64,000 nucleotides of DNA from Corallococcus sp. RDP092CA (GTDB taxonomy: Bacteria; Myxococcota; Myxococcia; Myxococcales; Myxococcaceae), in the NCBI RefSeq assembly GCF_041903675.1, contig NZ_JAYESI010000001.1, forward strand, positions 224,643 through 288,642. Direction: 5' to 3'. The position numbers and the translations under genes are program-made. The notes beneath the pieces were generated by a model. It saw only the letters and a list, made by a program, of their open reading frames with translations. It was not told where the DNA came from and searched no databases. This document shows positions 2,066 through 4,499 of the stretch, one piece after another (the stretch's first letter is position 1; each line of letters begins with the position of its first letter).

Positions 2066-2850
2066 TCAGGGGCGCCCCTCATCGCGCTGGAGCGCCTGCG
2101 TCAGCCGCTCCGCGAGCCGCTGGACGTGGGGCTCGCGCAGCAGCGTGTAGTGGGTGCCGGGGAGCACCTCCCGCGTCAGCGTTCCGTGGACGCGCTCGTT
2201 CCAGCCGTCGTCCCCGCGCGCCGGGGCGTCGCCCGCCTGGAGCAGGAGGACGCGGCCTTTGAACGTGCCGGGACGGTGGTGCTTCAGGGCCCGCAGGTTG
2301 CGGGTGAAGACGTGCAGGAGCGCGCGCCCTGTCGCCGTGGCGGCCTCCGGTGTCGCGAGCTGCCCCTGGTCGAGCTCGAACAGCGCGGCCACCTGGTCCG
2401 CGTCGTCCACGTCGAGCGGTACGCGGTCCTCCGTCGCCGGGCTGGGGTCGATGAGGGCCACGAGCTCCACGGCCTCTCCGCGGGCCTGGAGCTGACGGGC
2501 CATCTCGAAGGCCACCACGCCGCCCAGGGACCAGCCGCCGAGCCGGTAGGGGCCGTGGGGCTGAACGGTGCGCATGGCGGCTACGTAGAGCGCGGCCATC
2601 GCCTCCACGGAGTCGAGCGGCGGCCGGCTTCCATCGAGCCCCTGGGACTGAAGCCCGTAGAAGGGCTGCTCCGGGCCCAGCTGCTTCGCCAGCGCCGCGT
2701 ACGCGAGCACGTTGCCGCCCACCGGGTGGACGCAGAAGAACGGCCGCCGCGAGCCCTCTCGCTGGATGGGCACGAGCGGGGAGAAGACCGCGGGCGCCTG
2801 GCGCAGCAGTCGGGCCAGCGTCTCCACCGTGGGCGCCTGGAAGAGGGCGG
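2066..2850 (-). other. Thioesterase domain of the megasynthetase.
   Basis: Motifs FFCVHPVGGNVLAYAALAKQLG and GWSLGG at 2522-2536. It is the C-terminal ~260 aa. Confidence 0.85.
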
Positions 2851-4499
2851 CCAGGGGCAGCTCGCGGTGGAAGCGCTCGCGGATGCGCACCATCAGCTTC
2901 ACGGCGAGCAGCGAGTGGCCGCCCAGCTCGAAGAACGGCCGCGTCACGCCGATGGGGCGCACGTCGAGCAGCTCCTCCCAGAGCGCCGCGAGCTCCCGCT
3001 CCAGGTCGTCGCGTGGGGCGACTTCGGTGGCTTCGGAGGGACGGGAGGCTGGGGCCTCCGGGACGTGCATCCGTTGCCGCTCCTCGTCCGTCAGAGGGGA
3101 GTTCCGATCCAGGGGCGCATCGGGATCGGCGAGGACCGTCTCCAGCAAGGTGCTCCAGTACCCCATCAGCCGCTGGACCGTGGCGGAGTCGAAGAGGTCC
3201 GTGCTGTACGTGAGCGCCCCCTGGAAGCCGTCGGGCCGCCGGGTGAGGGCCAGGTCCAGGTCGAACTTCGCGGTTGGCGGGGTGACCTCCACTGCCTTGA
3301 GCGTGAGGCCGGGCAGGATGGCCTCTGGCTCGGCGGTGTTGTGCAGCGCGAAGAGGGACTGGAAGAGCGGCGTGCGGCCCAGGTCGCGCTCGGGCTGGAG
3401 TGCTTCCACCAGCCGCTCGAAGGGCAGGTCCTGGTGTTCGTAGGCGCCGAGCGTGGTCTCTCGCACCTGGGCGAGCAGCTTCCGGAATGACGTATCCGGC
3501 GTGAAGCGGGCTCGGAGGACCAGCGTGTTGACGAAGAAGCCGATGAGTCCTTCGGTCTCCGCCTGCCGGCGGTTCGCGATGGGCGTGCCCACCAGCACGT
3601 CGTCCTGCCCGGCGTACCGCGACAGCAGCAGTTGGAACGCGGCCATGAGCACCATGAAGGGTGTGGCGCCCTCGCGCTTCGCCAGCGCTTCCACCGCGTC
3701 ACTCGAGGCCGGCGTCAGCTGGACGGGCAACTGCGCGCCGCGCGCGGAGCGGCGGTCTGGACGGGGCCGGTCGGTGGGCAGCGCCAGCGCGTGGGGTGCC
3801 CCTTCGAGCTGCTGCCTCCACCAGTCCAGCTGCCCCTCCAGCACCGGGCCTTCCATCCACGCCGCCTGCCACCGAGCGAAGTCCGCGTACTGCACGGGCA
3901 GCTCCGGCAAGGGCGACGGCTGACCCTGATGGAACGCTTCGTAGAGCGTCACCAGCTCGCGCACGAGCACCCCGAAGGACCAGCCGTCGGAGACCGTGTG
4001 GTGCGTGCACAGGAGGAGCACGTGCTCCCGCGCGTCGAGCCGCAGCAGCGTGAAGCGCGCGAGCGGCCCCGTGCCCAGGTCGAAGGGACGCAGCGCATCC
4101 GCTTCCACCCGGCGCCAGAGCGCAGCCTCGCGCTCCTCCGCTGGCAGCGCCTCCAGGTCCTCCCTGCGCAGCACGCCCGTGGGCGCGGGATGGATGCGCT
4201 GCCGGGGTGTGCCGTCGAGGGCCTCGAATGTCGTGCGCAGGGTTTCGTGGCGCTGCACCAACACGTCGAAGGCGCGATCGAGGGCGGGCACGTCCAGCGC
4301 TCCGGACAGCCGCAGCGCGAAGGGCATGTTGTAGAGCGGGCTGTCTGGCTCCAGCTGATCGATGAACCACAGCCGCTGCTGCGCGAAGGACAGGGGCGCG
4401 AGTCCGTCCTCGTGCGTCCTCGTCAACGGCGGTAGCGCGGGCCTGGGCGCGGCGTCCGTCAGCCGCTCGGCGAGGCCCGCCACGGTGGGGGTTTCGAAG
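2066..4499 (-). other. Terminal module 10: C-T-TE. It has no adenylation domain.
   Basis: C has LCTHHTVSDGWS. It is followed directly by a linker and T domain, RPFFELGGHSLLAVKLMV (Ser near 2920). TE has FFCVHPVGGNVLAYAALAKQLG and GWSLGG (about 2522-2536). No A-domain motifs occur between C and T. Confidence 0.85.

Follow-up and report, generated by a model that had tools for sequence, protein, structure and literature searches.

The terminal module of a giant hybrid nonribosomal peptide synthetase/polyketide synthase (NRPS/PKS) was examined in a 64,000-nucleotide stretch of Corallococcus sp. RDP092CA (the window; contig NZ_JAYESI010000001.1, positions 224,643 to 288,642). This module, module 10, was found to run from a condensation domain (C10) directly to a thiolation carrier (T10) and a thioesterase (TE), with no adenylation (A) domain of its own, and it is intact, being neither an artefact nor a relic. 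The reading tentatively favoured here, at a probability of roughly 45%, is that module 10 is functional and that an A domain elsewhere in the same polypeptide loads T10 in cis. Module 10 would then still elongate and release the chain, having lost its A domain by in-frame excision, and holo-T10 would receive its amino acid from the A domain of another module in this 11,082-residue protein, most plausibly the nearest, A9 (Gln/Glu-like), which would charge both T9 and T10. C10 would couple the T9-bound chain to the T10-bound amino acid in the last peptide bond, and the TE would free the product.

The domain map was built with Pfam on three pieces of the protein and with phmmer seeded with the protein's own domains, and gave the order (C-A-T)x4, KS-AT-ACP (ketosynthase, acyltransferase, acyl carrier protein), C-pseudoA(LLM), (C-A-T)x3 and C-T-TE, LLM being a luciferase-like flavin mononucleotide (FMN) monooxygenase. 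The megasynthetase holds seven functional A domains (A1-A4 and A7-A9) and no epimerisation (E) domain. Over the last 1082 residues, Pfam matched the C-terminal end of an AMP-binding domain with AMP-binding_C, PP-binding, Condensation (residues 305-749 of the piece), PP-binding and Thioesterase, and no AMP-binding match followed the last C domain. The gap between C10 and T10 is about 25 residues, against about 500 required for an A domain, so no A domain lies between them. A hidden or frameshifted A domain at the junction was ruled out by running A and A_C seeds with phmmer --max against all six frames of nt 1-4460, where only noise (at most 1 bit) came back. A preliminary description, made from the sequence alone, had reported a terminal C-T-TE without an A domain and had named a corrected frameshift as the way in which one might yet appear; Pfam, the phmmer map and the six-frame search all agree with the former, no frame yielded the latter, and the motifs that it quoted (HHTVSDG, LGGHSL and GWSLG) were all recovered. 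The catalytic motifs of module 10 are complete, with HHxxxDG in the C domain, the phosphopantetheinyl serine in the T domain and Ser/His in the TE, and the direct passage from C to carrier, with no A between, is that of a non-linear (type C) NRPS.

The junction itself records how the module may have arisen. Canonical modules of this protein read '...PDAPLxRLSLLTxEERxQVLxxWNDT...[A]...GKVDRKALPAPEAxxxxxxAPRDxxExxLAxxW' and module 10 reads '...PDAPLDRNSPLTDEERQRM|HVPEAPASRPSEATEVAPRDDLERELAALW', so that the start of the C-A linker (LTDEERQR) is joined straight to the A-T linker that follows motif A10 (xPxxP...APRDD). The simplest history suggested by this alignment would be that an ancestral C-A-T-TE module had its A domain excised cleanly and in frame. 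The T10-TE pair most resembles termination T-TE units from other Myxococcaceae clusters in which the A domain has been retained, and unrelated A-less modules show a junction of the same type. The specificity of the ancestral A10 was also sought in the closest canonical C-A-T-TE relatives (L005-L012; loci numbered L come from a genome scan with T10-TE in which the region upstream of each T-TE was parsed), but these were set aside, since their last A codes differ (Ala, Gln-like and others) and orthology is doubtful.

The arrangement is conserved within the genus. A T9-C10-T10-TE query gave full-length matches in C. carmarthensis (P0001; 87% identity) and C. terminator (74%), and among the 80 loci of the T10-TE scan a C-T-TE terminus was found only in four Corallococcus orthologues (C. 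terminator L001 and L002-L004) and in a cyanobacterial locus, L045, all the others being canonical A-T-TE. The layout pseudoA-LLM-(C-A-T)x3-C-T-TE recurs in a further sequence cluster, drawn from C. exiguus, C. sp. AB030 and C. sp. M7. The linker-fusion scar is kept in L001-L004, P0001, P0244 and P0399, and at least six other, independent Corallococcus assemblies show the A-less junction (L001-L004, P0001 and the P0244 cluster), which excludes a sequencing or assembly artefact. The window, L001-L004 and P0001 all retain motifs C1 and C3-C7 of C10, the serine of T10, and GxSxG and GxH in the TE, whereas the pattern used for C2 did not match in L001 and L004. Pairwise Nei-Gojobori ratios of nonsynonymous to synonymous substitution rates (dN/dS) between the window and four other Corallococcus assemblies were 0.22-0.30 for C10, 0.09-0.30 for T10 and 0.20-0.31 for the TE, indistinguishable from the values of 0.14-0.37 for C8, A8, T8, C9, A9 and T9, which places module 10 under the constraint expected of a working module.

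C10 is 57-62% identical to C2-C4, C8 and C9. When compared with PDB structures, the elongating LCL domains of Txo2 (400 bits), Txo1 and TycC6 (330 bits) scored 330-400 bits, against 96 bits for the specialised AmbE C* domain (chain 7r9x) and 119 bits for McyA; with HHTVSDG and its best matches among LCL domains, C10 is not a heterocyclisation (Cy) domain with DxxxxD. By these comparisons it is a canonical elongating domain of the LCL type. Given an intact module under selection, with C10 an ordinary elongating domain and T10-TE an ordinary termination pair, loading by an A domain from outside module 10 is the reading that asks for the fewest assumptions. The preliminary description had likewise held that the carrier must be served from outside its module, a point that is upheld here; it had looked for the loader only among trans partners and overlooked the seven functional A domains of the same polypeptide. 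Its further options, a soluble nucleophile or transfer without elongation, fit poorly with a canonical LCL domain and with a C10-T10-TE unit selected like the complete modules.

Table 1. Features of the megasynthetase and its terminal module, with nucleotide positions in the window and residue numbers in the protein (M, module; Stachelhaus codes are followed by the predicted residue).
Feature	Position (nt)	Residues (aa)	Strand	Content or evidence
NRPS/PKS megasynthetase ORF (open reading frame)	2066..35314	11,082 in all	(-)	Uninterrupted according to the ORF list
M1-M4				C-A-T, four times
A1				DVWHVSLVEK, Ser
A2				DALWLGGTFK, Val
A3				DLFLLALVGK, no prediction
A4				DALYFGGVFK, Val/Ile-like
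M5				KS-AT-ACP
M6	14945..18832	5495-6790	(-)	C6 (5495-5942; HHIVCDT), then an A-like region (pseudo-A) split by a Bac_luciferase domain; no carrier
M7-M9				C-A-T, three times; A9 interrupted by about 300 aa
A7				DVWHMSLVDK, Ser
A8				DALWLGGTFK, Val
A9, last functional A domain	4736..7084	9411-10193	(-)	DAGDLGVVTK, Gln/Glu-like
T9 carrier, donor for C10	4463..4651	10222-10284	(-)	Pfam, phmmer
M10				C10, T10 and TE, as in the rows below
C10 condensation domain	3071..4399	10306-10748	(-)	HHTVSDG at nt 3983-4003 (aa 10438); core motifs C1-C7 intact
C10-T10 junction	2996..3070	25 in all, MHVPEAPASRPSEATEVAPRDDLER	(-)	Alignment with canonical modules and orthologues
T10 carrier	2813..2995	10774-10834	(-)	LGGHSL at aa 10797; phosphopantetheinyl Ser10801 at nt 2912-2914
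TE	2099..2743	10858-11072	(-)	GWSLGG (GWSLG at aa 10927); Ser10929 at nt 2528-2530; GTHY His motif

Loading in cis is favoured because no trans partner was found in the window or in two orthologue flanks and because A9-T9-C10-T10 has the topology of HMWP2 of the yersiniabactin pathway. HMWP2 is built as ArCP-Cy1-A-PCP1-Cy2-PCP2 (ArCP and PCP, aryl and peptidyl carrier proteins), and its single A domain charges both PCP1 and PCP2 in cis as well as, in trans, the PCP3 carried by HMWP1 (PMC9547227). The order A9-T9-C10-T10 equals A-PCP1-Cy2-PCP2, with both carriers on one polypeptide and the second one lacking an A domain of its own, and HMWP1 also has an A-less end (...Cy3-PCP3-TE). The resemblance is mechanistic and topological only: the yersiniabactin enzymes use Cy domains and their residue is always Cys, whereas C10 is a standard LCL domain across which double loading would have to operate. 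As for the partner, a Pfam survey of all sizeable ORFs outside the synthetase, those at 35.3-64 kb included, and a six-frame A/T search of the flanks found no stand-alone A, A-T, MbtH-like or shuttle gene in the window, in keeping with the preliminary description, which had seen no free-standing A protein and no non-colinear partner there. The other A domain of the window was rejected as a stand-alone loader, as it sits in a complete C-A-T-TE module of a PKS-NRPS gene (51121..59160, plus strand). No A, A-T, MbtH or shuttle gene occurs within 10 kb downstream of the orthologues of C. coralloides KYC2213 and C. terminator, and the orthologue flanks (L001 and L002) hold GON, GNAT, kinase, sigma-54 regulator and efflux genes and no A domain. 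A GNAT-like gene of 274 residues lies convergent just downstream of the synthetase in L001 (2695-3519), L002 (12662-13486), L003 and L004 (74-90% identity); it is missing from the window, and is thus dispensable for module 10.

Several points weigh against loading by A9. Nothing in the sequence singles it out among the A domains, and it bears in this strain a tandem-repeat insertion of about 300 residues. Similarity does not lead to a loader either, and inference on that basis was abandoned: T10 is only 51% identical to T9 and 46-55% identical to all other carriers, and the 62% identity of C10 to C9 equals that of C8 to C9. The 'ASRPS' shared by the linkers of M9 and M10 is weak evidence, and it was rejected as a sign that M10 was duplicated from M9, all A-T linkers here being alike (LPAPEAP...). 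A bolder twofold proposal, regarded as quite doubtful, would have it that either A9 charges two carriers across a full non-Cy C domain, a state reached when a redundant A domain was cut out and since maintained by selection in different Corallococcus species, or T10 stays without an amino acid throughout, with C10 working as a peptidyl-transfer or checkpoint domain that adds no residue before the TE. The former would provide a natural template for engineered A-less C-T extension modules.

The scan for a partner covered 64 kb, so a stand-alone A or A-T gene may lie elsewhere in the genome, and a split module of the SyrE type, in which such a protein charges T10 in trans, possibly through a shuttle acyltransferase after tailoring, is the main rival, a possible though rather unlikely explanation. 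It is the classic answer for C-T-TE ends. Module 9 of SyrE, in syringomycin biosynthesis, is the best-known case: it ends in the same C-T-TE after a run of complete modules in one large protein and is loaded in trans by dedicated proteins, SyrB1 (A-T) and SyrC; trans loading is also used by the A-less or A-dead modules of the ramoplanin, enduracidin, albicidin and cystobactamid pathways (PMC8949500). Moreover, the window is a small part of a genome of about 10 Mb that is rich in NRPS genes, and the genome scan gave many Corallococcus NRPS loci. In the known split modules, however, the partner genes lie within the cluster, as do the A-T, halogenase (SyrB2) and shuttle acyltransferase genes of syringomycin, none of which was found in the window or beside the orthologues; of the SyrE/SyrB1/SyrC set, only the terminal C-T-TE is therefore represented here. 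The two orthologue flanks likewise lack a partner, and the sole conserved neighbour, the GNAT gene of L001-L004, is not essential, being absent from the window.

Two further explanations would dispense with a loader altogether. Module 10 could be a non-elongating end, in which T10 is never aminoacylated, the chain passes from T9 to T10/TE and C10 serves as a scaffold, a gatekeeper or a docking platform for tailoring enzymes, giving a product of seven amino acids. In principle, NRPSs can skip modules and can contain C-like domains that do not elongate, and the sequence names no loader; this explanation was nevertheless considered improbable, as C10 keeps its catalytic core motifs, both histidines of HHxxxDG among them, in all orthologues, evolves under a constraint like that of elongating C domains, is nearest to canonical elongating C domains and not to the X, I or modAA types, and would have to move a peptidyl chain onto a bare phosphopantetheine thiol, which no C domain is known to do. 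Alternatively, C10 could join the chain to a soluble amine nucleophile, as terminal C domains do in other systems, with T10-TE left vestigial, or the whole module could be a decaying relic of a deletion or an artefact of assembly. That the A domain has clearly been deleted is in its favour, but with T10 and the TE intact and C10-T10-TE constrained at the dN/dS values given above (0.09-0.31 for T10 and TE), with the same type of junction in independent assemblies and with a continuous ORF, this explanation is highly improbable in either form.

Loading of a terminal carrier from within the same pathway can be compared with AmbE of the Pseudomonas aeruginosa AMB pathway, which ends ...A-MT-T1-C-T2-TE (MT, methyltransferase) and in which T2 was experimentally shown to be charged by the A domain of AmbB, which also charges its own T domain (PMC4357302). 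The T-C-T-TE terminus is as in the Corallococcus enzyme, but the loader is on a separate protein and AmbE has an atypical C* (modAA-like) domain, unlike C10. Independent C-T-TE termini with an intact HHxxxDG are also found in MgpD of megapolipeptin, C-A-T-E-C-T-TE (PMC11411415), in the NRPS P0286 of Sorangium sp. So ce854 (residues 3920-5398), which ends ...C-A-T-C-T-C-T-TE with two consecutive A-less modules, and in the uncultured cyanobacterium L045 (2945-11038), where C-A-T-C(E-like)-C-T-TE is followed by genes for a 2-oxoglutarate (2OG) oxygenase, a sulfotransferase, a PhyH protein and a glycosyltransferase, and where no stand-alone A domain occurs within 10 kb downstream. These belong to unrelated clusters, and an E domain precedes the A-less C domain (DCL type) of both MgpD and L045. 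A further candidate C-T-TE, indicated by the Pfam matches of P0030 of the Thermoanaerobaculia, was discarded, since reading by eye suggests a different layout, C-(A_C remnant)-T-C-linker-TE.

To gauge how frequent such modules are, C10-T10-TE was searched exhaustively with phmmer against 1.84 billion representatives, and domains were parsed in the best 150 matches, all of them large NRPSs. At least one A-less C-T module was present in 16 of these 150; most such modules measured 523-540 residues from the start of C to the end of T (529 here), HHxxxDG and GGHSL were nearly always intact, and in most of them the linkers were fused in the same manner. The similar size and intact motifs in 16 of 150 large NRPSs indicate that the A-less C-T design is viable. 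A terminal C-T-TE was rarer, with two of the 150, the Corallococcus family and the Sorangium enzyme that ends C-T-C-T-TE. A-less C-T modules are thus a known, recurrent class of non-linear NRPS, of which the Corallococcus module is a new case and not an anomaly.

In practice, the chief effect would be that a product predicted automatically for this cluster falls one residue short. If A9 indeed loads both carriers in cis, the enzyme would be a clean natural example of double loading in a standard LCL-type assembly line, and the useful novelty would lie in demonstrating this across a standard C domain. It would also show that a module can lose its A domain at the C-A and A-T linker boundaries and remain functional, offering breakpoints for compact C-T modules in NRPS engineering, and would aid product prediction for the uncharacterised, genus-wide myxoprincomide-type cluster of Corallococcus. 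Otherwise, module 10 would be one more documented non-colinear arrangement beside SyrE, AmbE and HMWP1/2.

The preliminary description had counted one C domain too many and one A domain too few, and had taken module 6 to be without both A and T domains. The two are explained separately here. Module 6 does lack a carrier; it contains, however, a dead, degenerate and truncated pseudo-A domain split by a MupA/Atu3671-type LLM (residues 6191-6497), without the A3 P-loop, A5 and A10 motifs and ending after the A8 region. On account of these defects, the region was rejected as a candidate for the missing A domain. By family, the pseudo-A/LLM unit is one of the widespread MupA/Atu3671 'natural product biosynthesis luciferase-like monooxygenase' proteins. 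Its distant relatives (about 40% identity) have the complete module C-A(LLM)-T; most of the closest ones (62-90% identity; Corallococcus, Pyxidicoccus, Myxococcus and Archangium) also lack the C-terminal A subdomain and a carrier of their own. In the myxoglucamide pathway, the C-FMN-monooxygenase didomain MxgE alpha-oxidises a PKS-extended amino acid to give alpha-hydroxy- and alpha-ketoamides (PMC13638107). By analogy, module 6 probably does not elongate the chain but oxidises the ACP5-bound Val-malonate intermediate in line at the alpha position, which would account for the extra C domain apart from module 10.

Specificity codes were anchored on the GrsA-PheA sequence, which is internally consistent with the nine published positions. 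With seven functional A domains, the 8 or 9 amino acids expected by the preliminary description become 7 or 8 plus one malonate-derived unit. If T10 is loaded in cis, the product would comprise eight amino acids and one oxidised malonate-derived unit, in the predicted order Ser-Val-X-Val(+C2, alpha-oxidised)-Ser-Val-Gln/Glu-like-[repeat of a residue already used]. The insertion in A9 is an in-frame tandem repeat of 57 bp (19 residues) at 5792-6732 of the window (minus strand; residues about 9528-9840), located in a surface loop between motifs A2 and A3 and made of about 17 units of 'EPVGQSDRF...AR'; TRF reported a period of 57 with 10.4 + 2.4 copies. A single unit is present in L002-L004, and the C. 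carmarthensis contig (P0001) ends exactly at the repeat and may also carry the expansion.

The cluster as a whole fits the description of the myxoprincomide type by analogy with the megasynthetase MXAN_3779 (MIBiG BGC0000393), with which it appears to share a single giant NRPS/PKS gene, Ser/Val-rich predicted blocks and PKS extension of Val followed by a flavin monooxygenase unit. The layout of MXAN_3779, KS-AT-ACP followed by C-pseudoA(LLM), is presumed here partly from indirect literature. Proteins of Myxococcus and Pyxidicoccus share 68% identity with the LLM unit. C. coralloides DSM 2259 is reported to have a cluster whose antiSMASH similarity to that of myxoprincomide is 66% (PMC10609524), and 'myxoprincomide-type clusters with differing organisation' were described across the Myxococcia (PMC10435759). 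The nearest T-TE relatives fetched from Myxococcus and Pyxidicoccus (L007-L011) differ in that they end in a canonical A-T-TE.

At its other end, the megasynthetase is listed from a GTG that lies 35 codons upstream of 'MASTPEQKRARL...' (35209-35314, minus strand), and the ATG at 'MASTPEQKRARL...' is probably the true start. The first module opens with a C domain (HHTVSDG) that has no donor carrier upstream and may be a starter C domain or vestigial. Just upstream of the synthetase start lie genes for a Gfo/Idh/MocA oxidoreductase (35970-37142, minus strand) and a 2OG-Fe(II) oxygenase (38040-39737, plus strand; DIOX_N/2OG-FeII_Oxy, its ORF as listed beginning with a GntR-like stretch), candidate tailoring enzymes, for example for Val beta-hydroxylation as in myxoprincomide or corramycin. 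Redoxin, CMD, BNR and cytochrome c proteins are also encoded in the window. Between the synthetase stop and a beta-carbonic anhydrase gene (578..1339, plus strand), only the remnant of a GON-domain gene was observed (1808-1981). A second, divergently oriented cluster (42558-59160, plus strand) of three genes, PKS, PKS and PKS-NRPS, was also recognised. Its first gene encodes KS, two acyltransferase matches, a dehydratase (DH) and ACP, the second KS, a partial AT and ACP, and the third KS-AT-DH-ACP-C-A-T-TE; this cluster, with its own TE, appears to be independent of the megasynthetase.

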